Part shown: in pieces, positions 23,111 to 49,402 of the stretch
How the letters are laid out: each line of letters begins with the position of its first letter
Position numbering within the stretch: the stretch's first letter is position 1
Assembly: GCA_050031695.1 (NCBI GenBank)
Contig: JBNAIC010000029.1
Location: 16,034-80,033 of the forward strand
Source: Pleomorphochaeta sp.
GTDB lineage: Bacteria > Spirochaetota > Spirochaetia > Sphaerochaetales > Sphaerochaetaceae
DNA length: 64,000 nucleotides
Direction of reading: 5' to 3'
Notes under the pieces: model-generated
Told to the model about the DNA's origin: nothing
The model's input: the letters and a program-made list of their open reading frames with translations, nothing else
Database searches by the model: none
Program-made: the position numbers and the translations under genes

Positions 23111-23113
23111 AAT

Positions 23114-24339: not shown

Positions 24340-24381
24340 ATAGTCACATTAATAAATATTAGATATATATAAAAAATATTA

Positions 24382-24393
24382 TTGATATATCAT
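24382..24393. promoter_or_regulatory. operator-like palindrome TTGATATATCAT (site B)
   Basis: 11/12 match to TTGATATATCAA. Lies between the candidate promoter and the SD of the first permease gene. Confidence 0.45.
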
Positions 24394-24415
24394 TGATAAA
24401 CAAAAGGAGACCATA

Positions 24416-25291
24416 TTGCTTAAAACAAAACATAATCAAACCTTAATTTGGTATTCTTTCTTGCTTCCGACCATATTAGCGTTAGCATTTTTTATGGCGT
24501 ACCCGATATTAGAAGCATTGAGACTTAGTTTTTTTAAATCCAATGGAACAATAGAAAATTTTGTAGGTTTAAGAAATTACAAAATAATTCTTACTAATAA
24601 AACTTTTTGGAACGCTGTATATACAACAATCTATTTAAGTTTTTTTAAATTATTAATTTCTATACCACTTGGATTTGTTATTGCTTACTGTATAAATGAA
24701 TTATCTTCATTTTTTCAAACCTTATTTAAAATAGTATATTTTATTCCATATGTAACATCAGTTGTTGCTGCTGGTATGATATTTATATTTGTTTTACATC
24801 CTGAAGAAGGATTATTAAATTCATTTATAGGAATATTTGGATTTGAACCGATTCAATATTTAGCTCATGCTAGATCTGCTAGATGGGGAACTATTTTATT
24901 GATGGTTTGGCACTGGCTTGGTTTTGTAATAATTATATTTATTGCTAATTTACAAACTATTTCTAAAGATATATATGAAGCAGCATTAATAGATGGTGCA
25001 AAAAAAATTCATACATTCTTTTATATAACAGTCCCTTTAATGAGAAATTCTTTTATTTTCCTTCTAATCCTTGGAACTATTGAAGGTTTAAAAACATTTA
25101 CAGAACCTTACATTTTAGGAAGAGGGAATGGGTCTCCAGGTGGAGCATTAACAACAATGACAGCGTATATTTATAATCGTGGATTTATGGGAAATGAATT
25201 TGGAGTTGCATCAGCTGCAGCTTATGTTCAATTTGCTTTAATATTTATTATCACATTTATAAATATTAAGTCATCGAAAATGAAATTATAG
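24416..25291 (+). CDS. CUT1-family ABC transporter permease (UgpA/MalF-like)
   Basis: Six TM helices and an EAA loop (EAALIDGAKKIHTFFYITVPLM). TTG start 5 nt after SD AAGGAGA. Confidence 0.88.
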   Translation: MLKTKHNQTLIWYSFLLPTILALAFFMAYPILEALRLSFFKSNGTIENFVGLRNYKIILTNKTFWNAVYTTIYLSFFKLLISIPLGFVIAYCINELSSFFQTLFKIVYFIPYVTSVVAAGMIFIFVLHPEEGLLNSFIGIFGFEPIQYLAHARSARWGTILLMVWHWLGFVIIIFIANLQTISKDIYEAALIDGAKKIHTFFYITVPLMRNSFIFLLILGTIEGLKTFTEPYILGRGNGSPGGALTTMTAYIYNRGFMGNEFGVASAAAYVQFALIFIITFINIKSSKMKL

Positions 25292-25303
25292 TAGGGGATT
25301 TAA

Positions 25304-26143
25304 ATGAGTAAAAAAAATAATTTAAGCTTTAATATATTTGCAATTACTTTATTAATTGCCTTTTCAATACTATTAATTGCACCATTTATTTGGATGATAA
25401 GTGTTTCATTAGAAAGATATGCAAATTTACAGCCACCATTTCCACCAAGTTTGATTCCACAAGAACCATCCATGTTTAATTATAAGTTAGTAATTGAAAA
25501 TGGAACTTTATTTAAAGCCTATGCTAATTCGTTTATAATTGCATTTTTTACTGTTTTAACAACATTATTTACTGCTTTATTAGGTGGTTATGCATTTTCA
25601 AAGGGAACATTTAAAGGTAAAAAAATATTATTCTTTTTAGTTTTAGGGACTATGATGATACCTTTAGAAAGTCGATTAATACCAATGTATATGATGTTTA
25701 GTGCTTGGAATATGTCAAACACATTCTTTCCACTAGTTTTAACTATGCCACAATTAGGATTTGCTGTTTTATTATCAAAACAATATTTTGATAATTTACC
25801 AAATACTATTAGAGAAGCTGCATGGATTGATGGAGCTACAGAGTATAAAATATTTAATAAAATATTTTTACCATTAAGTGGTCCAATGATTGCTACCTTA
25901 ATTATTTTGATATTTATGGGATCTTGGAATGATTTCTTATGGCCATTAATTGTATTAACTAGCCAGAAGTTACAAACAATACCTATATATTTATCAAAAT
26001 TCTCACTAGAAGATGGAACTGCATATGCTGGACTTTCAATGGCATTGTCTGCTTCAAGTATTGTTCCAGTTATTATCGTATTCTTAATTTTCCAAAGATA
26101 TATTATAGAAAGTGTCGCTATGAGTGGCATTAAAGGCGAATAG
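25304..26143 (+). CDS. CUT1-family ABC transporter permease (UgpE/MalG-like)
   Basis: EAA loop EAAWIDGATEYKIFNKIFLPL. Six TM helices. Confidence 0.9.
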   Translation: MSKKNNLSFNIFAITLLIAFSILLIAPFIWMISVSLERYANLQPPFPPSLIPQEPSMFNYKLVIENGTLFKAYANSFIIAFFTVLTTLFTALLGGYAFSKGTFKGKKILFFLVLGTMMIPLESRLIPMYMMFSAWNMSNTFFPLVLTMPQLGFAVLLSKQYFDNLPNTIREAAWIDGATEYKIFNKIFLPLSGPMIATLIILIFMGSWNDFLWPLIVLTSQKLQTIPIYLSKFSLEDGTAYAGLSMALSASSIVPVIIVFLIFQRYIIESVAMSGIKGE

Positions 26144-26152
26144 GAGGTTCGT

Positions 26153-27493
26153 ATGAAAAAGAAGTTTTTAACTCTTTCAATGATATTATTAGTATTAATA
26201 TCTAATTCAATTTTCTCTTCAGGTAGTTCTGAAGAAAGTCAAACAGCAAAGGTTGAAAAAACACCTTTACGTATTCAATTAATCGGTTCTTTTAAAGAAG
26301 AAGACACAACAGATCCAATTAGTGGTAAAAAAATAGTTGGTGTTCATTACCTAGAAGAAGAATTTGAGAAACTTCATCCTGAAGTTGATGTTGAGTTTGT
26401 AATTATGGGTTGGGATAGTTATACACAAAAAACTATTGCTATGCTACAGAATAACGATTCTGACGTATATCAAGTTCCTGGTATCGCATCAATTGCAGCA
26501 ATGGGTTTATTAGAACCATTGACTCCATACATTGAAAAAGATAATTTTGATTTAAATAAATATATTGGTAACCAAGTAAAAGGTTGGGAAGCAATTGGAC
26601 CTAATGATGATGATTTAAGTATATATGGTTTACCTTTTATTGGTGATACAAGATATATTTCTTATGATAAAAAATTATTTGATGACTGGGGTGTAGAATA
26701 CTTATCACAATATCCAACTTTAGAAGAAATTGAAACAAAAGCAGCTATGATGACTGGTATTAACCCAAAAACTGGTGAACAAAACTATGGTCTTAGATAT
26801 TTCGGTGGTAGTTATTTAGCTGATACAGCTATGAATATTAGTGAAGGTTTAGGTAATACATGGGGTTCTGGTTTTTCTTGGGATGATATGAGTGTAAACT
26901 TTAATACTGACGAAATGGTTGCTGCTGTTGATTGGATGAGAGAAAATCTAAAATATTGCCCACCTGGAAATGTTTCAAGACAAGGTGATGAAAAACTTTA
27001 TACTCCTGACAATAATATTGCAATTAACTTAAGAGATGATCCAAAAAGTTTATCAAAAATTGAAGCTTTAAATTGGGATGATAGAATTGGTATTTCACAT
27101 CTTTTTGTTAATCCTGAATATAATATGGGTAATATGTTTGCAGGTTCTCCTTGTGCTATTGGTAGCTCATCTGAAGTTAAAGATATTGCTTGGGAATGGA
27201 TTAAATTCTCATCAAGTGAAACTTTCCAAAGATATTTCTGGGAAGAATATAGATCACTTCCAACAATTAATAGCGCTTTAGATTGGGATTCTATCAATGT
27301 AATTCCTCAAATTTCTGAAGTATTAAAAACTATGGAAAATTTATGGGTACCACGTTATCCATATAGAGCAAGTGAACCAAGATCAATTTTCGCTATTCAA
27401 GTTGAAAAAGCATTATTAGGTGAACAAACTCCAATGGAAGCAATGGATCAAGCTCAAAACGATACAGACGCTTGGATTCAACAACAAAGATAA
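26153..27493 (+). CDS. extracellular/periplasmic solute-binding protein, family 1 (sugar or glycerophosphodiester type)
   Basis: Signal peptide without a lipobox Cys (LISNSIFS-SGSS). 446 aa. Operon position and SD AGGAGG. Confidence 0.85.
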   Translation: MKKKFLTLSMILLVLISNSIFSSGSSEESQTAKVEKTPLRIQLIGSFKEEDTTDPISGKKIVGVHYLEEEFEKLHPEVDVEFVIMGWDSYTQKTIAMLQNNDSDVYQVPGIASIAAMGLLEPLTPYIEKDNFDLNKYIGNQVKGWEAIGPNDDDLSIYGLPFIGDTRYISYDKKLFDDWGVEYLSQYPTLEEIETKAAMMTGINPKTGEQNYGLRYFGGSYLADTAMNISEGLGNTWGSGFSWDDMSVNFNTDEMVAAVDWMRENLKYCPPGNVSRQGDEKLYTPDNNIAINLRDDPKSLSKIEALNWDDRIGISHLFVNPEYNMGNMFAGSPCAIGSSSEVKDIAWEWIKFSSSETFQRYFWEEYRSLPTINSALDWDSINVIPQISEVLKTMENLWVPRYPYRASEPRSIFAIQVEKALLGEQTPMEAMDQAQNDTDAWIQQQR

Positions 27494-27503
27494 TTAATTC
27501 AAT

Positions 27504-27535
27504 ATCTACCTATTTATTTAATTAAATAGGTAGAT
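27504..27535 (+). promoter_or_regulatory. intercistronic hairpin after the binding-protein gene
   Basis: Perfect 13-bp arms: ATCTACCTATTTA and TAAATAGGTAGAT with a 6-nt loop. No T-run follows, so it is more likely an mRNA-stabilising or attenuating hairpin than a full terminator. Confidence 0.5.
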
Positions 27536-27555
27536 GTCTTGATAGGGAAATATTA

Positions 27556-28266
27556 ATGCACTTATATATTATTAGACATGCAGATCCAAGCTATAATCCA
27601 GATGGATTAACTGAAAATGGATATAAAGAAAGTAAAGTTTTAGCTAACAGATTAAAAGATTATGGCGTAAATAAAATATATAGCTCAAATATGGTTAGAG
27701 CAAAATTAACAGCAGAACCTACATCAAAGCTATTAAATATTGATGTAAATATTCATAAATGGCTAATGGAACCTGAAGAATTAAAGATAGTTCAATCTAA
27801 TCAAGAATATTGTATTTGGGATACATATGGTGAAACAATTAGACAATATGATCAGATGCCAACAAAAAATGATTGGTATACAAAGCATCCATTCGATAAT
27901 CCGAGAGTAAAAGAAAGCTGGGAAAAATTTGTTGTAAATTGTGATGAGTTTTTATTATCTCTAGGTTATAAAAGAGTGAATGGTAGATTTGAAGTTATCA
28001 AAGAAAATAATGATAGAATTGCTATTTTCACTCATAATGGAACTTGTTTATATTTCTTATCGTATTTGTTAGAAATACCTTTACCATTAGTTTTCAGTGG
28101 TTTTTATTGTTGGCCATCTTCACTTACTGATATTTATTTTGACCAAAGATCTTCTAAATGGGCAATCCCTAGAGCTTTATGTGTTGCAGATACATCGCAT
28201 TTAGCTAGTGAAAAATTAAAGCCACAAGCAAGAGGTATGGGAGATTATTGTCCTGAGTATTATTAA
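27556..28266 (+). CDS. histidine phosphatase superfamily protein (PGM-like branch)
   Basis: LYIIRHADP (RH motif with catalytic His), SSNMVRAKLTAEP and a second His in IFTHNGT. Confidence 0.8.
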   Translation: MHLYIIRHADPSYNPDGLTENGYKESKVLANRLKDYGVNKIYSSNMVRAKLTAEPTSKLLNIDVNIHKWLMEPEELKIVQSNQEYCIWDTYGETIRQYDQMPTKNDWYTKHPFDNPRVKESWEKFVVNCDEFLLSLGYKRVNGRFEVIKENNDRIAIFTHNGTCLYFLSYLLEIPLPLVFSGFYCWPSSLTDIYFDQRSSKWAIPRALCVADTSHLASEKLKPQARGMGDYCPEYY

Positions 28267-28285
28267 TATTTTTGTATTGTGAATA

Positions 28286-28320
28286 AAAAGTTAAAGTTGT
28301 AATAACTTTAACTTTTTTTT
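28286..28320 (+). terminator. rho-independent terminator of the ABC/phosphatase operon
   Basis: AAAAGTTAAAGTT-gtaat-AACTTTAACTTTT followed by a T-run. Confidence 0.8.
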
Positions 28321-28498
28321 ATACTCTTCTAAAGCTAAAAAGAAATAGTGAGGTGAAATTAAATTAAGTTATAAAGAAATTATCCAAAAAGGTTGGATGC
28401 TTTTTTAATGAGATATTGATGTGATATAATACTAATAAGTATATAAAGATTATTGGTGAAATATTAATTATATACTTACATATATAGATTAGTTTTAA

Positions 28499-29155
28499 TT
28501 AATAAAATAGATTTGGATAATTTGTTGTAATATTAAATACTTCATTTCTTTTACATATCTCAAAATCTTTCAAATTATCTACTGTCCACGTAAAAATTGG
28601 AAAATTCAATTCTCTTAGTTTAAAAAATAAAGGTGAATCTAATAATAGATAATTTATATTAATTCCAAAAAGAATAATTTTTTTATATTCATTTACATAA
28701 TATTCAATATTGTCATAGTATTCTTCTTCAAAATTGATAATTATTCTAATGTTCTTATTAATTTTATTAATAAGTTTAGCACCTTCAAGATGAGTACCTG
28801 ATATAACACAATTATTAACAAAATCATTTTCTTCAATACAAGATATGATTTTTTCTATATATTTGTCATCTTTTATATCTATATTTAACTTAGTATTATA
28901 TTTTTTAGCAAAACTAATTGCTTGATCAAGTGTAATTAACTGTTCATCATAAATTTTTGCATCATTAAAATTAAGTGAATCTAGTTCAATGTTATTTATA
29001 AGATTATCGTGGGCCAAAAAACAAATGTTATCTAAGCTAACTCTAACATCAACTTCTATATATGAATGTTTAAAATTAATTGCACATAATAAGTATTCAA
29101 TAGAGTTAGCTTTAGTATTATTTGCACCGCTGTGAATTGTTAATTTGTTAATCAT
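28499..29155 (-). CDS. glycerophosphodiester phosphodiesterase (GDPD) family protein, cytosolic, divergent N-terminal motif
   Basis: IHSGAN...IEVDVRVSLDNICFLAHD aligns with UgpQ-type HRG...IEFD...LLHD. No signal peptide. SD GAGGA upstream. Confidence 0.7.
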   Translation of the reverse strand: MINKLTIHSGANNTKANSIEYLLCAINFKHSYIEVDVRVSLDNICFLAHDNLINNIELDSLNFNDAKIYDEQLITLDQAISFAKKYNTKLNIDIKDDKYIEKIISCIEENDFVNNCVISGTHLEGAKLINKINKNIRIIINFEEEYYDNIEYYVNEYKKIILFGININYLLLDSPLFFKLRELNFPIFTWTVDNLKDFEICKRNEVFNITTNYPNLFY

Positions 29156-29208
29156 TTGTATCCTCAGATTTATTATAAAAGATAAAAAGCAAATTTTAAA
29201 TAAAATCT

Positions 29209-30078
29209 TTAATTAAAAGTTTTTATTCTTTCAATTACATCATTATATGTACCTTTAAAAGGTCCAGGTGTCTCCATTTTTATTGAACATAAAGCAGCAG
29301 CATAATTTACAGAATCTTGAATTGAAGAGTCTAATCTTTTTGATAGATAAGCCGCGAAAGTTGTATCGCCTCTACCTGTTCTGCCACTTAAATTATTAGG
29401 ATTAAATGGTGCTGTGTAGAACTTACCATCACTGTAAATAAGAACTTCGGTATTGTGAGTAACCATAACTTCTCTTATCCCTTTGTCCCCTAAAATTTTA
29501 GCTGCTTTTTTTCTATCTTTTTCACCGGTTAATATTTCAGCTTCAGCTGCATCTGTTTTTAAATATGTAATATATTTACTATATTCATCAAGATTGTCCC
29601 AATTCTTAAATAATAAATCATTGTTTGTACTTGCTCTTAATAGTCCTTGAGCATCAATTGCAACTTCAGCTTTTTTTGAATAAAATTCAATAAAACTATC
29701 AGGTATTTCATCTTTGAACAAACCTGCAAGATGTACTATTTTTGCGTCAAAATCAATCATATTATCTATAGAGAAATTGGTTGCTCTTGAAAGTAATGTT
29801 ACTTTTCTTTTTTCTTTGTCAGCAGAAAAATAAATATTTTCAATACTTGTTGTTTTTTCTGAGTCAAGTCTTGTAACATCAACACCATTATCACTCATAA
29901 CCATTAAATCGCTTTCAGCTTCTTTGTTTGCAACTGTGATTACTTTTATATTCTTATTATTAGTAGTTGCAGCAATTGAAGAATAAATTACAGGTCCACC
30001 TAAAAATTTCTGAACACTATCTTTGTAAATCATTATATCTTTTGATACATGACCTATCATTACAATATCATAAACCAT
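29209..30078 (-). CDS. PfkB/ribokinase-family carbohydrate kinase
   Basis: LGGPVIYSS N-terminal block and C-terminal GRTGRGDTTFAAYL (the DTxGAGD-type motif). ATG 30078 is preceded by AGGAGAG. Confidence 0.85.
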   Translation of the reverse strand: MVYDIVMIGHVSKDIMIYKDSVQKFLGGPVIYSSIAATTNNKNIKVITVANKEAESDLMVMSDNGVDVTRLDSEKTTSIENIYFSADKEKRKVTLLSRATNFSIDNMIDFDAKIVHLAGLFKDEIPDSFIEFYSKKAEVAIDAQGLLRASTNNDLLFKNWDNLDEYSKYITYLKTDAAEAEILTGEKDRKKAAKILGDKGIREVMVTHNTEVLIYSDGKFYTAPFNPNNLSGRTGRGDTTFAAYLSKRLDSSIQDSVNYAAALCSIKMETPGPFKGTYNDVIERIKTFN

Positions 30079-30102
30079 TATAACTCTCCTAATCAAAATA
30101 TT

Positions 30103-30467: not shown

Positions 30468-31484
30468 ATGTCAAATAATATTACAATAAAAGATATTGCA
30501 GCTATTGCTGGAGTTAGTTATTCAACAGTATCTAGATGTTTAAATGATAGTCCTTTAGTTTCTGAAAAAACAAAATATAAAGTTAATAAAATTGCAAAAG
30601 AACTTGATTTTGAGTTTAATGCAAATGCAAGAGGTTTAATAACTTCTAAAGCTAATACAATTGCAATTGTTTTACCTGAGGGTTTTTCAAAAATTAATAT
30701 TAGTGCATATCATAATATATTATTAAATTCATTACGAACAAATTTAGAAAAAAGAGATGTAGATTTAATAGTAACTTATCAAATTAATCATTATACAAAT
30801 CATAATAATATTATTAGATTGATTAATAGAAAAAAAATTGATGGATTAATATTATTAATTGAAGATCCTAATGAGGAAACTATAGATTTTATTAAAAATA
30901 GGGATGTTCCATCTGTTTTTGTTCACTATCCTCCAATTGAAAAAACTGAAAATTTTGATATTGTTTATACAGACCATTATGAAGGTGGTAAAATAGTTGC
31001 TAAACATTTATTAAAAAAGGGACATAAACATTTTACTGTTCTAGCTGTTGATGATTACCATAAGGAATTTAAATTAAGGGAAACAGCTTTTTGTGACGAA
31101 ATTATAAAAAATGGTGGTACAATAAATAAATTATTTTGTTCCTTAGATTATTGGAGTGGAAAAGAATGTGTTGAATCTAATATAGATTCAATATTAAAAA
31201 CTACTGCTATATTTGGTTTAAATGATTTAATTGCTTTAGGAGCAATGAGAGCATTGAATAAATTAAATGTAAAAATCCCTCATGATATTTCTATAGTAGG
31301 TTATGATAATAGTGAATTTAGTGAATATGCAAATCCATCTCTTACTACTATACACCAACCAAGAGAAGAATTAGCTCTTTTTGCTGTTGACAAGTTATTT
31401 AGGCAAATAAATAATGAAGGATCATTAGATAACACTAATAAAATAAGTATCAAGCCTGTACTTATTGAAAGAGACTCTACTTAA
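30468..31484 (+). CDS. LacI-family transcriptional regulator (probable iol repressor)
   Basis: HTH IKDIAAIAGVSYSTVSRCLN plus a PBP-type effector domain. Sits directly upstream of the iol operon. Confidence 0.9.
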   Translation: MSNNITIKDIAAIAGVSYSTVSRCLNDSPLVSEKTKYKVNKIAKELDFEFNANARGLITSKANTIAIVLPEGFSKINISAYHNILLNSLRTNLEKRDVDLIVTYQINHYTNHNNIIRLINRKKIDGLILLIEDPNEETIDFIKNRDVPSVFVHYPPIEKTENFDIVYTDHYEGGKIVAKHLLKKGHKHFTVLAVDDYHKEFKLRETAFCDEIIKNGGTINKLFCSLDYWSGKECVESNIDSILKTTAIFGLNDLIALGAMRALNKLNVKIPHDISIVGYDNSEFSEYANPSLTTIHQPREELALFAVDKLFRQINNEGSLDNTNKISIKPVLIERDST

Positions 31485-31629: not shown

Positions 31630-31643
31630 TACAAACGTTTGCA
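31630..31643. promoter_or_regulatory. LacI-type operator 2, TACAAACGTTTGCA
   Basis: Contains the perfect 10-bp palindrome CAAACGTTTG. Lies 56 bp downstream of operator 1 and just upstream of the iolB SD. Confidence 0.6.
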
Positions 31644-31665
31644 AAAACAAATAGGAATTTATATT

Positions 31666-32472
31666 ATGATTGTTAAAAGAAACGAAGAATTTAAATGTGG
31701 GTATACCACCATTACTGAATTAAATGGCACAAATAAAGAAATGTTATTAGACTTTGGAATATTAAAATTAGATACAGATGATATTTTTGAATCTGATAGC
31801 AATTTAGAAAGAGCTTATTTATTAATAAGTGGAAAAATCGAATTTATTTATGAAGATAAAAAATATATTGCAGAAAGGTATTCTTGTTTTGATGAAGAAC
31901 CTATAGTTTTACATGTTTCTAAAGATGTAAAAATAAAAATTATTGCACTAAATGATAGTGAAATATGTATTGAAAGATGTCAAAACGAAACCATATTCCC
32001 TTCAAAGATATATAACAAAGATAATGTTAGGACAGATATTTTTGGTAAAGATGTTCTTAATAATACTTCAATTAGAAGTGTTAGAACTATTTTTGATGGT
32101 GAAATTGCACCATATTCTAATATGGTTATGGGTGAAGTTATAAATCATCCTGGTAAATTCTCAAGTTATCCACCTCACGATCATCCTCAACCTGAAATTT
32201 ATCATTATAAATTTTTCCCAAAACAAGGTTTTGGAGTTTCCATGTTAGACGATGATGCCTTTGTTGTAAAAGATGGTGATACTTCATTAATAAAACCAGA
32301 TACAACTCATTCTCAAGTTGCAGCTCCTGGGTACGCAATGTATTACATTTGGATGATTCCTCATTTAGAAGATGATAGATGGTTGCCAACTACAAGATAT
32401 TATAGGGATGAGCATAAATGGTTATTAGATAAAGATGTCAAAATCTGGCCAGAAAAAAAATTCGAAAAATAA
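31666..32472 (+). CDS. iolB: 5-deoxy-glucuronate isomerase
   Basis: Cupin-type KFSSYPPHDHPQPEIYHYKF...QGFG block typical of IolB. About 268 aa counting from ATG 31666. Confidence 0.85.
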   Translation: MIVKRNEEFKCGYTTITELNGTNKEMLLDFGILKLDTDDIFESDSNLERAYLLISGKIEFIYEDKKYIAERYSCFDEEPIVLHVSKDVKIKIIALNDSEICIERCQNETIFPSKIYNKDNVRTDIFGKDVLNNTSIRSVRTIFDGEIAPYSNMVMGEVINHPGKFSSYPPHDHPQPEIYHYKFFPKQGFGVSMLDDDAFVVKDGDTSLIKPDTTHSQVAAPGYAMYYIWMIPHLEDDRWLPTTRYYRDEHKWLLDKDVKIWPEKKFEK

Positions 32473-32496: not shown

Positions 32497-34377
32497 ATGA
32501 AATCTACAATAAAGTTAACAACAGCTCAGGCAATAGTTAAATTTTTAGATAATCAATATATAAATTTTGATAATAGAGAAGAAAAGTTTGTAAATGGTGT
32601 TTTTGGTATTTTCGGGCATGGTTGTGTAGTAGGGCTAGGAGAAGCTTTAGAAGAAAATAATCATAACTTAAAATTCTATAAAGGTTCTAATGAGCAAGGA
32701 ATGGCACATAGTGCTATCGCATATGCTAAACAAAATAATAGAAAAAAAATTATGGCAGTTACAACTTCAATAGGACCTGGGGCTATGAATTTAGTTACAG
32801 CAGCAGCCTTAGCTACAACTAATAGAATTCCAGTTTTATTATTACCTGGTGATACTTTTGCATGTAGACAACCAGATCCTGTTTTACAACAGTTAGAGCA
32901 GTTTAATGATTTTGGAATTACATCAAATGATGCCTTTAAACCAGTTTGTAGATATTTTGATAGAGTTAATAGACCTGAGCAAGTTATGACTGCACTACTT
33001 AATGCAATGAGAGTTTTAGTTTCTCCAGTTAATACAGGAGCGGTATGTTTAGCTTTACCTCAAGATGTTCAAGGTGAATCATATGATTATCCAATTGAAT
33101 TTTTTGAAAAAAGAATTCATTACATTAGTAGAGTTAGTGCTAATGAAGTTGTTGTTGATAAAGCTGTTGAATTAATAAAAGATAGTAAAAAACCCTTAAT
33201 GATTTGTGGGGGTGGTGTAAGATACAGTGAATGTGGCAGTGAATTTGCCTCTTTTGCAATGAAATATAATATTCCATTTGGTGAAACTCAAGCTGGAAAA
33301 AGTGCTGTTGAATTTGCACATCCTATGAATTTGGGCGGAATTGGTGTAACCGGTAATTCAGCTTCTAATAATATAGCAAAAGAAGCAGATTTAATTATTT
33401 CTGTTGGTTCTAGAATGTCTGATTTTACTACATCAAGTAAATGGTTGTTTGACTTTGATAAAGCTAAAATTATTTCTATAAATGTTAATGATTTTGATGC
33501 TATAAAAATGGACTCCTTGCCATTAGTTTGTGATGCAAAAAAAGGATTAGATGCTTTAGATTCAAAGCTAAGTAAATTGAACTATAAATCAAACTATAAA
33601 CAAGAAATACTAGTCGAAAAATTAAAATGGGATGAAGAAGTAAATAGATTATATACTACTGAATTAGGCCCAAATAATAGATATTCACAACTTAGAGCAC
33701 TTGGCATTATGAATGATGAGTTATTTGATAAAAACAGTATAGTTGTAGGTGCTTCAGGATCTCTTCCTGGTGATATGCAAAGAGTCTGGAGAGCATATGA
33801 AAGAAATACTTATCATATGGAATATGGTTATTCATGTATGGGATATGAAGTTAGTGGTGCTCTTGGAGTAAAATTAGCTAAAGAAGATGTAGAAGTTTAT
33901 TCAATGGTTGGAGATGCTTCTTTTGTAATGTTACATTCAGAGCTTCTTACTGCTTTAGAAAATAATATCAAAATTAATATTATGTTATTTGATAATAATG
34001 GTTTTGGTTGTATTGATAATCTTCAAAGATCTCAAGGAATTCCTAAATTTGGTTGTGAATTAGTTTATAGAGGAAAAGAATCTAATAGATTAGATTCTAC
34101 GGGTTCAAAATTGAAAGTTTCTTATGCAACTATTGCAAAAGGCTATGGCTGTGATGTTTGGACAGTTACTAATAGCGACGAATTAAAACAAGCTATAAAA
34201 GAATCAAAGAATAGTAATAAATCAACTCTTATTGATATAAAAGTTGATGAAGATTCTATGAGTGGCTCTTATGGAAGTTGGTGGAGAGTTGGTACTGCAG
34301 AAATTTCAGAAAAAGATAGTGTAGTACAAGCTTCAAATAATCTAAAAAAAGAAATTAAAAAAGTAAAACAATACTAA
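32497..34377 (+). CDS. iolD: 3D-(3,5/4)-trihydroxycyclohexane-1,2-dione acylhydrolase (decyclizing), ThDP-dependent
   Basis: N-terminus IKLTTAQAIVKFLDNQYI...FGIFGHGCVVGLGEALEE closely parallels Bacillus subtilis IolD. The ThDP motif GDASF...NNGFG is present. Confidence 0.93.
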   Translation: MKSTIKLTTAQAIVKFLDNQYINFDNREEKFVNGVFGIFGHGCVVGLGEALEENNHNLKFYKGSNEQGMAHSAIAYAKQNNRKKIMAVTTSIGPGAMNLVTAAALATTNRIPVLLLPGDTFACRQPDPVLQQLEQFNDFGITSNDAFKPVCRYFDRVNRPEQVMTALLNAMRVLVSPVNTGAVCLALPQDVQGESYDYPIEFFEKRIHYISRVSANEVVVDKAVELIKDSKKPLMICGGGVRYSECGSEFASFAMKYNIPFGETQAGKSAVEFAHPMNLGGIGVTGNSASNNIAKEADLIISVGSRMSDFTTSSKWLFDFDKAKIISINVNDFDAIKMDSLPLVCDAKKGLDALDSKLSKLNYKSNYKQEILVEKLKWDEEVNRLYTTELGPNNRYSQLRALGIMNDELFDKNSIVVGASGSLPGDMQRVWRAYERNTYHMEYGYSCMGYEVSGALGVKLAKEDVEVYSMVGDASFVMLHSELLTALENNIKINIMLFDNNGFGCIDNLQRSQGIPKFGCELVYRGKESNRLDSTGSKLKVSYATIAKGYGCDVWTVTNSDELKQAIKESKNSNKSTLIDIKVDEDSMSGSYGSWWRVGTAEISEKDSVVQASNNLKKEIKKVKQY

Positions 34378-34394: not shown

Positions 34395-35285
34395 ATGGAT
34401 AATAAGAAAGTTAAATTAGCAATTGCTCCAATAGCTTGGACAAATGATGATATGCCTGATTTAGGAAGTGAAAATACATTTGAACAATGTGTAAGTGAAA
34501 TGGCTTTAGCAGGTTTTAGAGGTAGTGAAGTTGGAAATAAATATCCAAAAAATCCAGAAGTTTTAAAACCAATGTTGGATTTAAGAGGAATTTCAATTTG
34601 TAATCAATGGTTCAGCTCATTTTTAACAACACAAAGTCTTGATGAAGTAATATCCGATTTTAATAAACAATTAGATTTTTTAGAGGCTGTGGGAGCTAAA
34701 TTAATTGGACCTGCTGAACAAGGTAATTCTATTCAAGGTAAAAATTTGAGTGTTTTCGATGAAAAACCAATCTTTAGTGATAAAGAATGGGAACTTGTAG
34801 CTAATGGGTTAAATACTCTTGGAAAAATTGCAAAAGATAGAGGTTTTAAACTTTGCTACCACCATCATATGGGTACAGGTTGTCAAACTATCAAAGAGAC
34901 TCAAAAATTAATGGATATGACAAATAAAGATTATGTTTATTTAACATTTGATTCAGGACATTTTGCTTTCTCTGGTGAAGATCCTGTTAAAGCTTTGTCT
35001 TTATTTATTGATAGAGTTGCTCATGTTCATTTAAAAGATATTCGTCAAGAAATTGTAAAACAAGTTAAAGAACAAAAATTAAGTTTTTTAGAAGCTGTTA
35101 GATTAGGTGCATTTACAATTCCTGGCGATGGTTCTATTGATTTTCCAGCCATTTTTAAAATTTTAGAAGAAAATGATTACCAAGGTTGGATGGTTGTAGA
35201 AGCTGAACAAGATCCAGCAAAAGCTAACCCATTAGAATATGCTATTAAAGCAAGAAAATATATTAGAGAAAATACAGGATTATAG
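34395..35285 (+). CDS. iolE: myo-inosose-2 dehydratase
   Basis: [45 protein letters not shown] is near-identical in pattern to the B. subtilis IolE N-terminus. Xylose-isomerase-like TIM barrel. Confidence 0.92.
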
Positions 35286-35295
35286 GAGAATTTTT

Positions 35296-36324
35296 ATGAA
35301 GAATATAAATATTGGAATCATTGGTGGAGGTAGAATTGGACAAGTTCATGCAAAAAGCATAACTAATTTAGTTCCTAACGCAACAATAGTTGCATTAGCT
35401 GATCCTTTTATGAGTGAAAAGTTAGAAACATGGGCAAAAAGTATTGGAATTAAAGAAACTTATAAAGATCCATATAAAATCATTAATCACGAAAATATTG
35501 AAGCTGTATTAATTTGTTCACCAACAGATACTCATACAGAGTTAATACAAGCAGCTGCAAAAGCTAAAAAACATATTTTCTGTGAAAAGCCTGTTGATAC
35601 AGATTTAAATAGAATTAACGAAACTATGAATGTAGTTAAAGAAAATGATGTTTTATTCCAAATTGGTTTTAATAGAAGATATGATCATAATCATAATGCT
35701 GTTAGAAATGCAGTAATAAATAATGAAGTTGGAGATGTTCATGTTATTAAAATTACATCAAGAGATCCTGAGCCACCAAATCCAGAATATGTAAAAGTTT
35801 CAGGTGGAATTTTCTTAGACATGATGATTCATGATTTCGACATGGTTAGATTTTTAAGTAATAGTGAAGTTGAAGAAGTATATGCTTCAGGTGCAGTTCT
35901 AATAGATCCAGAAATTGGAAAAGCTGGTGATGTTGATACAGCAATGGTAATGTTAACTATGAAAAATGGGTCATTAGCTATTATTGATAATTCAAGACAA
36001 GCTGTATATGGATATGATCAAAGAACAGAAGTGTTTGGATCAAAAGGTTGTGCTAAAGTTGAAAATGATAGAAATAGTTTAGTTGAAATTAGTTCAAAGA
36101 CAGGTGTTAAATCTGAGAAACCTTTATATTTCTTCTTAGATAGATATATTGATTCATATGCAAATGAAATAATTGAATTTATAGATGCAGTTCAAAGTGG
36201 AAAAGAAATTACTTGTGGAATAGACGATGCTATTAGACCTGTTGAAATTGCTCTTGCAGCAACTAAATCATTAAAAGAACATCGCCCTGTATTAATCAGT
36301 GAAATAACAAACGATATTAAATAA
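35296..36324 (+). CDS. iolG: Gfo/Idh/MocA oxidoreductase, probable myo-inositol 2-dehydrogenase
   Basis: IGIIGGGRIGQVHA Rossmann motif, CEKPV and GFNRRYD blocks, plus operon context. ATG 35296 is preceded by AGGAGA. The track N-extension overlaps iolE. Confidence 0.8.
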   Translation: MKNINIGIIGGGRIGQVHAKSITNLVPNATIVALADPFMSEKLETWAKSIGIKETYKDPYKIINHENIEAVLICSPTDTHTELIQAAAKAKKHIFCEKPVDTDLNRINETMNVVKENDVLFQIGFNRRYDHNHNAVRNAVINNEVGDVHVIKITSRDPEPPNPEYVKVSGGIFLDMMIHDFDMVRFLSNSEVEEVYASGAVLIDPEIGKAGDVDTAMVMLTMKNGSLAIIDNSRQAVYGYDQRTEVFGSKGCAKVENDRNSLVEISSKTGVKSEKPLYFFLDRYIDSYANEIIEFIDAVQSGKEITCGIDDAIRPVEIALAATKSLKEHRPVLISEITNDIK

Positions 36325-36349: not shown

Positions 36350-37369
36350 ATGAAAAAAGTAAAAGTAGGTGTTGCTGGATACGGTACAATTGGACAAAGA
36401 TTAGCTGACGGTGTAGCTCTTCAAGAAGATATGGAATTAGTAGGAGTTGCTGATGTTGCACCAACACTACCTGTTCAAGCATTATATGAAAAAGGTATGC
36501 CTTATAAACTATTTACTGCAGTACCTGAAAAAAAGCATCTATTAACAGATAGAGGTATTCCTGTAAGTGGTACATTAGAAGAATTAGTTCAACAAGTAGA
36601 TATTATGCTTGATGCAACCAATGCAGGTGTTGGGGCTATGAATAAAAAATTATATGAAAAATATAATACAAAAGCAATTTTCCAAGGTGGAGAAAAAAAT
36701 GATGTAGCAGATATTTTCTTCCATGGTTATGCTAACTATGAAAAAGGAATAGGTGCTGATTTTTTAAAGTTAACTTCATGTAATACAACAGGTTTAATAA
36801 GAGCTATCGATTCTATTGATAGAGCAGTTGGTGTTGAAAAAACAGCAATTACTATAATAAGAAGAGTTGCAGATCCAGGTGATTACCATAGAGGCTTAAC
36901 TAATGCTTTAGAAGTTGCTCCAGCTCCAAACCATCAAGCTTTAGATTTAATGACAATTATGCCACACATTGATGCTACAGGTATTTTAGTACACACACCT
37001 GTAACTCATGGACACATTATTACATCAGTAGTATCAACTAAAGATAAAATTAGTAAAGATGAATTATTAGAAATTTTTAATGCTCATCCAAGAATTCGTG
37101 TTGTAAGCTTAGAAGATGGCTTTAAAGGGAATGCTTCATTATTTAAATATGCTAGAGATTTAGGTCATCCAAGAGGTGATATGTATGAAATTGCAGTGTT
37201 TAAGGAGTCTATTGTAAATAGTGGTGATGATATTATGTTCGCAATTAATATTCCACAAGAAGCTGTAGTAATTCCTGAAAATATAGATGCAATTAGAGCA
37301 GCTCTTAAAATGCAAGATACTAGAGAAGAAGGAACAAAAGAAACTAATAAATATTTAGGAATGAAATAA
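36350..37369 (+). CDS. type II (archaeal-type) glyceraldehyde-3-phosphate dehydrogenase homologue
   Basis: VGVAGYGTIGQRLADG, AIFQGGEK, SCNTTGL (catalytic Cys), IIRRVADP, YEIAVFKESI and QEAVVIPENIDAIRA. These are collinear with archaeal GAPDH as I recall the Methanothermus sequence. SD AGGAGA upstream. Confidence 0.88.
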   Translation: MKKVKVGVAGYGTIGQRLADGVALQEDMELVGVADVAPTLPVQALYEKGMPYKLFTAVPEKKHLLTDRGIPVSGTLEELVQQVDIMLDATNAGVGAMNKKLYEKYNTKAIFQGGEKNDVADIFFHGYANYEKGIGADFLKLTSCNTTGLIRAIDSIDRAVGVEKTAITIIRRVADPGDYHRGLTNALEVAPAPNHQALDLMTIMPHIDATGILVHTPVTHGHIITSVVSTKDKISKDELLEIFNAHPRIRVVSLEDGFKGNASLFKYARDLGHPRGDMYEIAVFKESIVNSGDDIMFAINIPQEAVVIPENIDAIRAALKMQDTREEGTKETNKYLGMK

Positions 37370-38613
37370 TGAATAGTAATTTAGGGTTTAAATCTATTGA
37401 AGAAATAGATGTTAAAAATAAAAAAGTATTACTTAGATTAGATATTAATTCACCTATTGATGTGAATACTAAAAGAATTGTAAATACTAATAGAATTGAT
37501 AAATCCCTAAGAACTTTAAATTATTTAAAAGAAAATGGTGCAAAAGTTGCCATAATTGCTCATCAAGGAGATACTTTAGATTATCAAAATCTAATATCTC
37601 TGAGTGAGCATGCTAGTATATTATCAAAAAAAATGAATGTAAATGTTGATTATATTGATGATGTATGTGGACCTGCAGCAATTGAAAAAGTAAATAATTT
37701 AAAAAGTGGTGAATTTATTATTTTAGGTAATTTAAGATATTTAGGAGAAGAGTTATCTACATTTGAAAATAGTGTAAAGTTGAGTGATGAACAATTATTA
37801 AGTAATTATTTAGTTAGATCATTAACACCTCATTTTGATTTATATGTAAATGATGCATTTTCTGCAGCACATAGATTTGCTCCAAGTATGGTTGCTTTTC
37901 AACGAGTATTACCAAGTGCTGCTGGATATCTGTTCTTTGATGAAATTTCAACACTTAAAAAAATAAAAGATAATCCTATCTCTCCTTGTATTTTCGTTCT
38001 AGGTGGGGCAAAAATTTCTGATGCATTTTCTATGATGGAAGAAGTTTTAAGTAAAAATATTGCTGATAAAATTCTAACATGTGGTGTAACTGGAGAAGTT
38101 TTTCTACTTGCTAAAGGAATCTATCTTGGTAAAAAAGTTGAAGAATTTATAAAAGATAGAGGCTTAGAAAACTTTATAAAAGAAGCTAAAAAACTATTAG
38201 ATAAATATGAAGATAAAATAGTTGTTCCAAAAGATTTAGCCTATGAAGAAGATAATCAAAGAAAAGAGCTATTAGTAAATGGTGAACTTTTAGATTATTT
38301 ATATGCAGATATTGGTGAAAATACGATATCAACTTATAAAAAAATCATATTTGAAGCTAAAACCATTTTTGTAAATGGGCCAGCTGGAATGTATGAAAAT
38401 CCAATATTAGAAAACGGTACTAAAGAACTGCTTATAGCAATATCAAATTCAAATGGATTTAGTGTAGTAGGTGGTGGAGATAGTGTTAGTGCAACTACTA
38501 AATTTACTGATTTAAACAAAATGGATTACATCTGTACTGCAGGTGGAGCAATGGTTAGATATTTATCTGGTAAAAAATTACCCCTAATAACAGCAATGGA
38601 AAATTCAAAATAA
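37369..38613 (+). CDS. archaeal-type phosphoglycerate kinase homologue
   Basis: LLRLDINSPID, IIAHQG, LGNLRY, NDAFSAAHR, FVLGGAKISD and VVGGGDS blocks, collinear with archaeal PGK. Its start overlaps the GAPDH-like stop (TAATG). Confidence 0.85.
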   Translation: MNSNLGFKSIEEIDVKNKKVLLRLDINSPIDVNTKRIVNTNRIDKSLRTLNYLKENGAKVAIIAHQGDTLDYQNLISLSEHASILSKKMNVNVDYIDDVCGPAAIEKVNNLKSGEFIILGNLRYLGEELSTFENSVKLSDEQLLSNYLVRSLTPHFDLYVNDAFSAAHRFAPSMVAFQRVLPSAAGYLFFDEISTLKKIKDNPISPCIFVLGGAKISDAFSMMEEVLSKNIADKILTCGVTGEVFLLAKGIYLGKKVEEFIKDRGLENFIKEAKKLLDKYEDKIVVPKDLAYEEDNQRKELLVNGELLDYLYADIGENTISTYKKIIFEAKTIFVNGPAGMYENPILENGTKELLIAISNSNGFSVVGGGDSVSATTKFTDLNKMDYICTAGGAMVRYLSGKKLPLITAMENSK

Positions 38614-38636
38614 TAATTAAGATAAATAAACATTAA

Positions 38637-38668
38637 GGGGTGAGATTAATTTTTCACTCCTTTTTTTT
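38637..38668 (+). terminator. rho-independent terminator after the PGK-like gene
   Basis: GGGGTGA...TCACTCC 7-bp stem (one G-U pair), 10-nt loop, then T8. Confidence 0.7.
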
Positions 38669-38677: not shown

Positions 38678-39919
38678 ATGAAATTTAAAGTTAACTATAA
38701 TAAAGAAATAGTAAATATAACAATAAAAGATGATACTAAAATTATTTCACCAAAAGATGTTCTTGTAAAAAATCAAGAAAGTATAATCACTAAAAGTTTA
38801 AATAATCCTATAAACAGTAAATCATTAAATGATTTTATATATAATAAAGATAAAATTTTAATAATAGTAAATGATGGAACACGCCCAACACCTACTGCAA
38901 AAGTTTTGGAAACTATTTTTCCAATAATAAAGAAAAAACAAATTACTATAATGATTGCTACAGGTGTCCATCGTATAGCAAATGAAAATGAATTGATTCA
39001 TATACTAGGAAATACATATGATAATTTAAAAGATAAAGTTATTTCTCATGAAGCAAGAAAAGCAGAAGATTTACAATATATTGGAACAAGTCGTAATGGT
39101 ACACCTTTAGAAATTAATAAAGAAGTATTAAATAATGAGGCCTTAATAGTAATTGGTAGTGTGGAACCACATTATTTTGCAGGATATACAGGTGGTAGAA
39201 AAGCTATAATGCCAGGTGTTGCGTCATTTAAATCTATAGAAGCAAATCATAAACATGCATTAGATTATAGAGCTAAAGCATTAAACCTAAAAGACAATCC
39301 AGTTCATTTAGATATGGTAGATGTATTATCTCTTTTAGGTGATAAACCGATATATTCAATTATGAGTGTTATGGATAGAAACCATAATATTTATGAAATT
39401 ACATCTGGTAATATAATTGATAGTTTTGATCAAGCAATAAAATATGCTAATGAAGTATTTACACAAGAAATAAATGAAAAATATGATATTGTAATAAGTG
39501 TAGCAACATCTCCTATGGATATAGATTTATATCAATCTCAAAAAGCTATAGATAATGGTAAATTAGCACTAAAAGATAATGGGATATTAATATTAGTGTC
39601 TGCTTGTTTAGAAGGAGTAGGGGAAAAAGCATTTTACGATTTATTAAAATCTTGTAGTACACCTGAAGAAGTTTTAGAAAATATTTCTAATAATTATAAA
39701 TTAGGGTACCATAAAGCTGGAAAAATGGCTGAAGTAATGACTTGGGCAAATATTTATGTAGTTAGCGAATTAGAGAATAAACTATGGGAAGATATTTTTA
39801 TTCAACCTTTTGGTTCTATTCAAGATGCAATAAATTGTGCAACTAAAATTAAAGGGAAAAATGCTACCTTTTGCTTACTTACAGATGGTTGTATTACTGT
39901 ACCTTTATTAACAAAATAG
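38678..39919 (+). CDS. LarA-family nickel-pincer-cofactor-dependent 2-hydroxyacid racemase/epimerase homologue (DUF2088)
   Basis: NDGTRPTP, ATGVHR and EPHYFAGYTGGRKAIMPGV (the GGRK Lys is the cofactor-tethering position in LarA), plus ANHKHAL. Confidence 0.85.
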   Translation: MKFKVNYNKEIVNITIKDDTKIISPKDVLVKNQESIITKSLNNPINSKSLNDFIYNKDKILIIVNDGTRPTPTAKVLETIFPIIKKKQITIMIATGVHRIANENELIHILGNTYDNLKDKVISHEARKAEDLQYIGTSRNGTPLEINKEVLNNEALIVIGSVEPHYFAGYTGGRKAIMPGVASFKSIEANHKHALDYRAKALNLKDNPVHLDMVDVLSLLGDKPIYSIMSVMDRNHNIYEITSGNIIDSFDQAIKYANEVFTQEINEKYDIVISVATSPMDIDLYQSQKAIDNGKLALKDNGILILVSACLEGVGEKAFYDLLKSCSTPEEVLENISNNYKLGYHKAGKMAEVMTWANIYVVSELENKLWEDIFIQPFGSIQDAINCATKIKGKNATFCLLTDGCITVPLLTK

Positions 39920-40159: not shown

Positions 40160-40819
40160 ATGGGCGTTATTACAATTTCAAGAAAAATGGGAAGTGAAGG
40201 AACTTATATTGGTAGAAAAGTTGCAAAAAGATTAAACATGGCTTATGCAGATAAAGCTTTTATTTCAAAAATTATGAGAGAGTATGGTTTTAGTGCATTT
40301 AAGGAAGTTTATGATGAAACACCTACATTTTGGGATAAGTTTTTAACAATTAGAGAGCAAACAATAGATTTCTTAGCTAAAACAGAACAAGCTATTGGTA
40401 AAGCTGATAATGTAGTAATTGTTGGTAGAGGTGGTTTTGGTATTTTTGAAAATTATAATGATGTATTAAATATTAGAACAAAGGCCCCATTAGAAATTAG
40501 AGTTAAGAGACAAATGGCTGAGCATGATATAAGTTATGAAGAAGCTTATACCCATGTTTTAGAAAATGATAAAGTACGTAAAAATTTTGTAGAGTCTGAT
40601 TTTAGATTTGATTATCAAAATACAAATAGTTTTGATATGATAATTAATACTGCAATTATTGATCCTGATAAATCAGTAGACTATATTTGTGAAGTATATG
40701 ATTCTTTGATAAAAAATGGTAGATCTAGCACATCAAAAAATTTAAAAGATTTAGAAGTTGATCCAATTTTATTAAAGTATGTTAGAGAAGAATTAGATAA
40801 AACTAAAGATGCTTTATAA
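40160..40819 (+). CDS. cytidylate-kinase-like family protein
   Basis: VITISRKMGSEGTYIGRKVAKRLNM and VIVGRGG blocks of the AAA/cytidylate-kinase-like family. SD GGAGG upstream. Confidence 0.72.
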   Translation: MGVITISRKMGSEGTYIGRKVAKRLNMAYADKAFISKIMREYGFSAFKEVYDETPTFWDKFLTIREQTIDFLAKTEQAIGKADNVVIVGRGGFGIFENYNDVLNIRTKAPLEIRVKRQMAEHDISYEEAYTHVLENDKVRKNFVESDFRFDYQNTNSFDMIINTAIIDPDKSVDYICEVYDSLIKNGRSSTSKNLKDLEVDPILLKYVREELDKTKDAL

Positions 40820-49129: not shown

Positions 49130-49402
49130 ATTATTTTTTTGTGGTTTAATTGAGGGATAATGATATAATGAATAATAGGTTAATAATCTAAATTTCTAAT
49201 AAATCTAATAATATTTATTTTAATATTCTTGATTATTAGAATAATCTACTATTTTATTATAAAATCCTAAAATAAAATACTAAGTGTTTAATTAAGTAGT
49301 GTATAAGTATTTTTATTAAGGTTGATTTTTTGTGTTTCTTTTAATATTGTTACTAATGAAAGTTAGATGTTTTTAACTTATCTTAATTTATAGGGGTTAT
49401 TG

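Follow-up and report, generated by a model that had tools for sequence, protein, structure and literature searches.

An archaeal-type GAPDH/PGK-like gene pair in a Pleomorphochaeta inositol operon and its possible role in an ATP-conserving route to D-malate

What does an archaeal-type pair of seemingly glycolytic genes do inside a bacterial inositol operon, and why does its kinase carry an acidic residue where nearly all of its nearest relatives have a basic one? These questions are raised by a 64-kb stretch of DNA (64,000 nucleotides of contig JBNAIC010000029.1, assembly GCA_050031695.1; hereafter the window) from a metagenome-assembled genome (MAG) of Pleomorphochaeta sp. (Spirochaetota, Sphaerochaetaceae), which is AT-rich with a GC content of 27%. 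On its plus strand the window harbors a co-directional operon encoding, in this order, a LacI regulator, an IolB-like isomerase, IolD, IolE, IolG, a glyceraldehyde-3-phosphate dehydrogenase (GAPDH)-like protein (GAPDHl), a phosphoglycerate kinase (PGK)-like protein (PGKl), a LarA homolog, and a Cytidylate_kin2-family protein (Table 1). GAPDHl and PGKl are each 100% identical to database entries named for Pleomorphochaeta sp., and the public annotation of the pair reads "type II glyceraldehyde-3-phosphate dehydrogenase" and "phosphoglycerate kinase". We observed directly the features of the sequences, the residues that mark each subfamily, and the associations between genes that are set out below. 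The pair would belong to a bacterial subfamily that descends from the archaeal-type enzymes; it is very probably not a glycolytic GAPDH and PGK, and acts instead on a carboxylate-bearing, non-phosphorylated analog. More specifically, and with a probability that we put at roughly 60%, we propose that it comprises an ATP-conserving malic-semialdehyde dehydrogenase and a D-malyl-phosphate kinase of a variant inositol pathway, for which we infer which substrates are used, in which direction the reactions run, and that a transketolase is supplied in trans.

Subfamily-specific residues in two archaeal-type proteins

A preliminary description of this locus had assigned both proteins to the archaeal rather than the bacterial enzyme families, and the structural matches agree with it: GAPDHl retrieves archaeal type II structures only from the PDB (2CZC with 259 bits, 1CF2, 1B7G, and 2YYY), and the best match of PGKl is the Pyrococcus horikoshii enzyme 2CUN, with 279 bits, the highest-scoring bacterial PGK reaching 184 bits. 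The motifs quoted at that time are all present, namely AIFQGGEK at residue 109, SCNTTGL at 143, RRVADP at 171, and PNHQALD at 193 of GAPDHl, and RLDINSP at residue 23, IIAHQGDTLDYQN at 62, NDAFSAAHR at 161, and GGGDS at 368 of PGKl, as is the TAATG overlap between the two plus-strand open reading frames (ORFs). GAPDHl is collinear over its full length with the type II enzymes of P. horikoshii (2CZC), Methanothermus fervidus (1CF2), and Sulfolobus (1B7G), at about 40% identity, and shares with them the SCNTT catalytic Cys, the RR-x-A-D-P motif, and the conserved His. PGKl is likewise covered from end to end by the Pfam PGK model (PF00162; 349 bits, model positions 1-379), with the hinge and the nucleotide site conserved as in 2CUN.

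The most pronounced departure lies in the substrate pocket of PGKl. We examined the classical substrate and catalytic positions of PGK in an alignment of 82 sequences using human numbering, the register of which is the same in the PDB alignments. Among D23, N25, R38, H62, R65, R122, R170, K215, E343, and D374, only R65 differs in PGKl. The counterparts of the other nine are D25, N27, R42, H65, R123, R169, K215, E343, and D371, and the GGGD motif is also conserved. The N-domain basic patch (R38, H62, R65, R122, and R170) is thus incomplete, with four of its five residues kept, as they are in 2CUN, and the fifth replaced by Asp68. This Asp is found in 34 of 34 subfamily members, and the 47 nearest outgroup archaeal-type PGKs have Arg (44), Lys (2), or another residue (1) at the same position. 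The loss of a basic-patch Arg, as claimed in the preliminary description, therefore stands; its rendering of the archaeal motif as AHQSRPG captured one variant among several, since HQGR[KPQ]G and HQSRPG both occur and P. horikoshii has HQGKP. That the Arg might merely have shifted can be discarded, as none was restored in the alignments to 2CUN, 1VPE, and 4DG5 or in the 82-sequence alignment. Nor is HQGD a common variant of archaeal PGKs: it occurs in 0 of the 47 outside the subfamily, and the P. horikoshii enzyme has Lys at this position. Judged from these alignments, the replacement of Arg by Asp is far beyond chance.

The same division runs through the wider family. HQGD[TS] was present in all 120 top PGKl homologs; every PGK at least 48% identical to PGKl with a readable motif region has HQGD, and every PGK at 45% identity or less has another motif, nearly always HQGR[KPQ]G or HQSRPG. 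Two further features set the subfamily apart from 2CUN in addition to the Asp at R65, which are a conserved TLDYQNL loop after Asp68 and an additional segment that follows the R122 loop (approximately residues 131-136 of the window protein).

A second set of marker residues was found in GAPDHl, for which 37 subfamily members were compared with 69 full-length representatives of the wider family. Cys144, R171, R172, H195, D199, and H222 are all kept, with C144 present in 37 of 37 members and H222 aligned with a His that is conserved in 61 of the 69 archaeal-type representatives. The invariant hallmarks of the subfamily are Q196 (His in 57/69 representatives), K140 (Arg in 58/69), L213, H215, and H220, of which His215 and His220 are new relative to the archaeal type II enzymes. 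Owing to Q196, the S-H-H motif is incomplete, its second His being Gln in 37 of 37 members. This motif is part of the anion and phosphate sites of GAPDH, in which its second His presumably takes part. The preliminary description had pointed to the whole change from SHHGPD to PNHQALD; the His-to-Gln part of it proved to be a hallmark, and the Ser-to-Asn part did not, given that Asn occurs in 20 and Ser in 16 of the 37 sequences. GAPDHl members form a separate and tight bacterial clade, sharing at least 62% identity with one another and no more than 44% with any representative outside it. At 50% clustering the protein has two full-length representatives (67% and 62% identity), after which identity drops to 44% or less. 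Both subfamilies were monophyletic in neighbor-joining trees (PGKl 34/34, GAPDHl 37/37).

Base composition, on the other hand, does not separate the two genes. The four hand counts of G+C in the preliminary description (26 and 22 in the GAPDHl gene, 11 and 17 in the PGKl gene) are exact, and the whole-gene GC indeed differs (0.324 against 0.273), but the contrast carries no meaning: GC at third codon positions (GC3) is 0.103 and 0.092, with a mean of 0.115 and a standard deviation of 0.018 over 22 window genes. The difference arises from the first two codon positions and thus reflects amino-acid content, and the housekeeping genes ackA (0.327) and arcC (0.333) equal the GAPDHl gene in GC richness. 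The view that the partners are compositionally unlike was thus not upheld, because GC3 is equal in both, and horizontal transfer inferred from base composition was rejected since both GC3 values correspond to the genome background.

Pairing and gene neighborhoods in other genomes

A metagenome scan added 80 loci to those already collected, and a single-protein contig scan gave only close Sphaerochaetaceae relatives. The GAPDHl gene lies immediately upstream of an HQGD-type PGK gene in 34 of the 36 loci with enough sequence, against 1 of 33 Arg-type control loci. The junction of the two genes could be placed at both ends in 24 loci, with 19 overlaps, four gaps of 1-10 nt, and one gap of 90 nt. 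Locus L027 (8894-14096) is the sole one without any detected GAPDH-like gene; there, an Iso_dh gene directly precedes the HQGD-type PGK gene and a transketolase gene follows it.

Extending the comparison to the surrounding genes, we counted neighbors in 24 HQGD loci of at least 12 kb and in 21 control loci. Inositol (iol) genes were found in 15 of the 24, a split transketolase in 10, LarA in 14, and malic enzyme in seven, and these four as well as the Iso_dh-family dehydrogenase (IsoDH) were absent from all 21 controls; the nearest Arg-bearing PGK relatives have none of the neighbor genes associated with PGKl. IsoDH occurs in two of the long loci (L010 and L027) and, further, in L026, L030, and L013 (partial). 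LarA or IsoDH is encoded in 16 of the 24 long loci, and both together in none.

Several of these neighborhoods are complete and colinear. In Thermoanaerobacterium thermosaccharolyticum, the cluster comprises an ABC transporter, malic enzyme, GAPDHl, PGKl, the two transketolase halves (TK-N and TK-C), IolB, IolD, IolE, IolG, IolG', LarA, and TAL, and Clostridium ganghwense has the same core together with an Iso_dh enzyme and without LarA or malic enzyme. Garciella nitratireducens encodes GAPDHl, PGKl, TK-N, TK-C, LarA, malic enzyme, IolB, IolD, IolG, and IolE, a Victivallales MAG also has a complete colinear cluster, and locus L018 reads IolG, IolB, IolD, IolE, GAPDHl, PGKl, malic enzyme, LarA of the window type, TK-N, and TK-C. 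The IolB-like protein of the window, which scores 84 bits on TIGR04378 (cut-off 205) and is recognized by its KduI/IolB family match, has orthologs at 36-52% identity that accompany the pair in other phyla. The four Pfam-annotated clusters (L001, L010, L011, and L012) contain no member of the families to which IolC, IolJ, and IolA belong, namely the PfkB-type kinases, the aldolases, and the aldehyde dehydrogenases (ALDH), and screening of the ORFs across the window gave no IolC, IolJ, IolA, transketolase, or malic enzyme. A different set of neighbors was seen in locus L003 (1-15105), in which the pair and a split transketolase are accompanied by UxaE, two Zn-dependent alcohol dehydrogenases, a creatininase-family protein, a sugar-isomerase-like TIM barrel, and ABC transporters; its transketolase C-terminal gene is broken by a DDE transposase.

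In contrast to the archaeal type II enzymes, GAPDHl is thus coupled to an HQGD-type kinase in sugar-acid clusters and not in glycolytic or gluconeogenic ones. The proposal of the preliminary description, that loss of a 3-phosphate ligand would fit a non-phosphorylated or otherwise different acid substrate, gains support from the invariant Asp, the monophyly of the subfamily, the pairing with GAPDHl, and these sugar-acid clusters without glycolytic genes.

The same observations bear on the simplest explanation of the locus, by which an ordinary GAPDH and PGK of archaeal origin would have been placed in the operon to speed the conversion of triose phosphate arising from the classical IolC/IolJ route. 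GAPDHl does score above its family cut-offs (419 bits on NF003251, cut-off 185; 320 bits on TIGR01546, cut-off 233), PGKl reaches 349 bits on the Pfam model, the catalytic residues are intact, and a PfkB kinase gene lies divergently upstream of the operon. However, the invariant change of R65 to Asp takes away a phosphate ligand for which 46 of the 47 nearest relatives have Arg or Lys; neither IolJ nor IolA was found in the window, and the Pfam-annotated clusters contain no aldolase- or ALDH-family gene; and the association with transketolase, LarA, malic enzyme, and D-malate dehydrogenase would be left unexplained. The PfkB protein was itself rejected as IolC, having no match to the IolC model and a gene that is absent from the syntenic loci. 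Thermoanaerobacterium and Sphaerochaeta presumably have bacterial-type gap and pgk genes. Taken together, we regard an ordinary triose-phosphate role as very unlikely.

An alternative that does accommodate the lost phosphate ligand is malonic semialdehyde, the classical product of IolJ and a known aldehyde of the iol pathway (PMC8355322), which is non-phosphorylated and bears a carboxylate, and which the pair would convert by way of malonyl phosphate to malonate and ATP. Its formation needs IolC and IolJ, yet the Pfam-annotated clusters contain no PfkB- or aldolase-family gene; transketolase, a 2-hydroxyacid racemase, malic enzyme, and D-malate dehydrogenase would again be without explanation; malonate has no stereocenter and would depend on a malonate decarboxylase, of which none was seen; and the aminotransferase context of locus L015 (see below) does not fit. 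We consider this substrate highly improbable.

A candidate route from inositol to D-malate

The reading that we prefer, in which the pair forms and then uses D-malyl 1-phosphate, would begin with IolG, IolE, IolD, and the IolB-like isomerase converting myo-inositol to the free ketose 2-deoxy-5-keto-D-gluconate (DKG). Written from its keto end, DKG is CH2OH-CO-CHOH(L)-CHOH(D)-CH2-COO-; it corresponds to xylulose 5-phosphate in which a carboxylate replaces the phosphate ester, and its D-threo configuration is the one required of transketolase donors. Transketolase would take the C2 ketol unit off DKG to leave (R)-3-hydroxy-4-oxobutanoate, or D-malic semialdehyde, which is the carboxylate analog of D-glyceraldehyde 3-phosphate. 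In this organism the cleavage step would have to come in trans, because neither the window nor the syntenic loci contain a transketolase. GAPDHl would then serve as a phosphorylating D-malic semialdehyde dehydrogenase, yielding D-malyl 1-phosphate with NAD(P)+ and phosphate, and PGKl as a D-malyl-phosphate:ADP phosphotransferase, yielding D-malate and ATP from D-malyl 1-phosphate and ADP. LarA, acting as a D/L-malate racemase, would finally deliver L-malate to central metabolism; in other genomes, malic enzyme may act after LarA, or a D-malate/tartrate dehydrogenase may replace both.

The choice of this substrate follows from the inositol operon context, the downstream LarA, and the transketolase link elsewhere. 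With the stereocenter retained, the product would be D-malate, so a racemase or a D-malate dehydrogenase would be needed. This expectation was derived before the clusters of T. thermosaccharolyticum and C. ganghwense were seen, and their gene content fits it. Moreover, a carboxylate is monoanionic and sits one atom closer to C2 than a phosphate, and it plausibly requires fewer basic ligands, which could be why PGKl has lost R65 and GAPDHl the second His of its SHH motif. The same logic is reportedly found in the sulfo-transketolase pathway of sulfoquinovose degradation, in which a dedicated transketolase is said to cleave a non-phosphorylated ketose with a distal sulfonate in place of the phosphate; the distal group there would be a sulfonate and here a carboxylate, and that pathway would lack a GAPDH/PGK-like energy-conserving step.

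Compared with classical myo-inositol catabolism (IolG-E-D-B-C-J-A, as in Bacillus subtilis and Anaerostipes), the first four steps to DKG would be shared (PMC8355322). From there, the classical IolC/IolJ/IolA route proceeds through a C3 + C3 aldol split to dihydroxyacetone phosphate and malonic semialdehyde, whereas the proposed branch would use a C2 + C4 transketolase split to reach D-malate and ATP, spending no ATP and gaining one by substrate-level phosphorylation. The conversion of malic semialdehyde to D-malate and on to pyruvate is established in the carnitine degradation of Acinetobacter (PMC11353897). The L-carnitine pathway of Acinetobacter baumannii has the same intermediates as proposed here, and its D-malate likewise needs a dedicated enzyme; it relies, however, on a non-phosphorylating ALDH without ATP gain, in contrast to the GAPDH/PGK-type pair, which would conserve ATP (PMC11353897).

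The D-malate step could be examined through the LarA homolog of the window. Its closest NCBIfam model is the malate racemase LarAH6 (NF052593, 391 bits), its best PDB match is the malate racemase Mar2 (6D6Z), and its DGTRP, GVHR, EPHY, GGRKA, NHKH, QSQK, and GYHK segments all align with their Mar2 counterparts. Residues for catalysis and for binding of the nickel-pincer nucleotide (the DxxR Asp and Arg, two His, and two Lys) are kept, as is the GxHK Lys, which in Mar2 was proposed to bind the second, distal carboxylate, along with the other residue roles described for that enzyme (PMC7583248). The protein differs from these racemases in having Phe, not Lys, after the catalytic His-Tyr. LarA of the window type co-occurs with malic enzyme, transketolase, and iol genes in loci L018 and L042, and the LarA proteins of L001 and L011 reach 584 bits on the malate racemase equivalog (cut-off 500). 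On the tartrate dehydrogenase equivalog TIGR02089 (cut-off 470), the L010 dehydrogenase reaches 521 bits. The family of this Iso_dh enzyme is one that we take to include decarboxylating D-malate dehydrogenases. An association between LarA and PGK genes has in fact been noted before, in that 17% of LarAH group 4 genes neighbor a COG0126 "PGK" (Desguin et al., PMC7583248); the group was predicted to racemize malate or a near analog, with the PGK link uninterpreted and the physiological role of malate racemases left open (PMC7583248).

A further context in which the same aldehyde may arise is locus L015 (1214-13654), a non-inositol cluster without iol or transketolase genes that comprises the TRAP transporter DctPQM, two sigma-54 activators, a class III aminotransferase, GAPDHl, PGKl, malic enzyme, and LarA. 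Its content suggests that an omega-amino hydroxy acid, for example 4-amino-3-hydroxybutyrate, is catabolized by way of this aldehyde, in which case the aminotransferase would act on an omega-amino-beta-hydroxy acid of this kind to produce it.

These contexts are also those in which a related aldehyde-acid has to be weighed against D-malic semialdehyde. The pair might act on a C4 2,3-dihydroxy "tartaric semialdehyde", formed by transketolase from a keto-uronate, or directly on 5-deoxy-D-glucuronate, so that D-malate would not be the product here. Such a substrate is suggested by locus L003, where the pair and transketolase occur with UxaE and Zn-dependent alcohol dehydrogenase and without iol genes, by the tartrate dehydrogenase equivalog in L010, and by the finding that tartrate is also epimerized by malate racemases (PMC11770544); 5-deoxy-glucuronate, a 2-hydroxy aldehyde with a distal carboxylate, would be available because the window is without a transketolase. 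Against its direct use, the IolB-like isomerase is kept in every iol-linked cluster, where it would be pointless if 5-deoxy-glucuronate were consumed as such. LarA with malic enzyme, or IsoDH, fits malate best, and the aminotransferase context of L015 yields a C4 mono-hydroxy aldehyde. We therefore hold a related aldehyde-acid to be unlikely as the substrate in this operon.

As to direction, archaeal type II GAPDH/PGK pairs typically serve gluconeogenesis. By analogy with them, the pair could run reductively, with a hydroxy-dicarboxylate activated by ATP and reduced to the aldehyde, either to feed biosynthesis or to dispose of electrons, and the LarA and aminotransferase reactions are reversible as this would require. 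But the pair sits in catabolic, transporter-linked, repressor-controlled operons, and an ATP-consuming step after cleavage of the inositol ring would have no obvious purpose. We assign the reductive direction hardly any weight.

Several observations weigh against D-malic semialdehyde and D-malyl 1-phosphate as the substrates. GAPDHl clears by a wide margin the cut-off of the NCBIfam equivalog model for genuine type II GAPDH. An Asp in place of Arg, as at residue 68 of PGKl, is not an obvious way of binding a carboxylate. The LarA of the window shares only about 35% identity with the LarAH6-type racemases that accompany the pair in Firmicutes, and its score falls short of the equivalog cut-off of 500. 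Neither the window nor the vicinity of the operon in syntenic Sphaerochaetaceae (L002, L004-L008, and L014) has a transketolase or malic enzyme. The pair, finally, stands alone in L013, L020, and L035, and goes with UxaE, Zn-dependent alcohol dehydrogenase, and transketolase in place of iol genes in L003; in these lineages, its substrate may be broader or different, tartaric semialdehyde being one example.

Should the D-malyl 1-phosphate reading be right, its reach could extend well beyond this operon. We consider the chances about even that it represents an undescribed substrate-level phosphorylation, terminating a transketolase-dependent, kinase-free, and aldolase-free fermentation of inositol and other hydroxy acids, that is widespread in anaerobic Spirochaetota, Clostridia, and Victivallales and gives the nickel-pincer malate racemases a physiological role. 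NCBIfam (June 2026) has no dedicated model for GAPDHl or PGKl, and in the full-text literature, most subscription journals lying outside it, we found no transketolase-dependent inositol route, no natural malyl-phosphate-forming enzyme, and no function for these paralogs. Of the bacterial genes automatically annotated as "type II GAPDH" or "phosphoglycerate kinase", hundreds to thousands would then be mis-assigned, and metabolic reconstructions of anaerobes that use them would be wrong. The reaction would join the short list of substrate-level phosphorylations, and the pathway would constitute a third architecture of bacterial inositol catabolism, of relevance to gut and sediment fermenters. 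It would also explain the efficient malate racemases of organisms not known to grow on malate, a question raised in PMC7583248, and provide a natural example of a single basic-to-acidic change retuning a phosphate-binding pocket.

The operon and its surroundings in the window

The features of the operon and of the neighboring region are collected in Table 1.

Table 1. Features of the window around the GAPDHl/PGKl pair, in order of position, with the evidence for each assignment.
Feature	Position	Strand	Evidence or remark
Acetate kinase	5851-7197		
Carbamate kinase	20465-21442		
Glycoside-hydrolase-like ORF	21581-23110	-	
GntR/LacI-hybrid regulator	23114-24187	-	
Two UgpA/UgpE-like ABC permeases	24416-26143		
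446-aa ORF	26153-27493		Without NCBIfam match
Histidine-phosphatase-family protein	27556-28266		
218-aa upstream ORF	28499-29155	-	Sub-threshold glycerophosphodiester-phosphodiesterase match, 25 bits, cut-off 264
PfkB kinase, divergent from operon	29209-30096	-	Weak ribokinase-like matches
LacI-family transcriptional regulator, operon head	30468-31484	+	Pfam LacI and Peripla_BP_3; best NCBIfam match RbsR-like, below cut-off
IolB-like isomerase (KduI/IolB family)	31639-32472	+	Pfam PF04962, 163 bits
IolD (trihydroxycyclohexane-1,2-dione hydrolase)	32497-34377	+	TIGR04377, 903 bits, cut-off 715
IolE (inosose dehydratase)	34395-35285	+	TIGR04379, 414 bits, cut-off 290
IolG (inositol 2-dehydrogenase)	35239-36324 (longest ORF)	+	TIGR04380, 471 bits, cut-off 355
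GAPDHl, type II (archaeal-type) GAPDH-like dehydrogenase, 339 aa	36350-37369	+	NF003251, 419 bits; PDB matches
TAATG stop/start overlap (translational coupling)	37367-37371	+	TAA 37367-37369, ATG 37369-37371, from sequence
PGKl, archaeal-type PGK-like kinase, 414 aa, HQGDT replacing HxGRP	37369-38613	+	Pfam PGK, 349 bits
Terminator-like hairpin and T-run in the PGKl/larA gap	38635-38662	+	11-bp stem, 4 G-C pairs, then TTTTTTT
LarA homolog (nickel-pincer 2-hydroxyacid racemase)	38678-39919	+	Pfam Lar_N and LarA_C
Cytidylate_kin2-family protein	40160-40819	+	Pfam PF13189
Pyruvate formate-lyase-like ORF	49400-51466		Read by synteny with L002 only

Within the operon, the longest IolG ORF begins inside iolE, and its TIGR04380 match starts only at ORF residue 23. 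Since this is near the ATG at 35299 (MKNINIGIIGG), the shorter start is favored and is probably the real one, leaving a gap of 13 nt after iolE. The larA gene starts about 64-65 nt 3' of the PGKl gene, and the hairpin in this gap suggests that larA may be partly insulated or separately transcribed, but the number of terminator-like sites in the region (2 observed against 2.8 expected by chance) is not above chance and makes this weak evidence. The Cytidylate_kin2 gene is conserved in the Sphaerochaetaceae version of the operon, with orthologs at 50-88% identity in L002, L005-L008, L014, and L038. Its position varies: it lies after larA in the window and between iolG and the GAPDHl gene in L002 (8319-8969) and L014 (1639-2274). 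The clusters of Firmicutes and Victivallales do not have this gene and carry transketolase instead.

A second sugar-type cluster is found directly upstream of the iol operon (21581-30096). Its 218-aa ORF was considered as a transaldolase or aldolase and rejected, the sub-threshold match given in Table 1 being its sole one. The cluster as a whole could supply inositol from glycerophosphoinositol or inositol phosphates. Farther downstream, two long minus-strand ORFs (1067 and 460 aa) within 57562-62163 gave no Pfam match at E<=1e-5. The acetate kinase, the carbamate kinase, and the pyruvate formate-lyase-like ORF would fit a fermentative anaerobe, to which an additional substrate-level phosphorylation would be of value.

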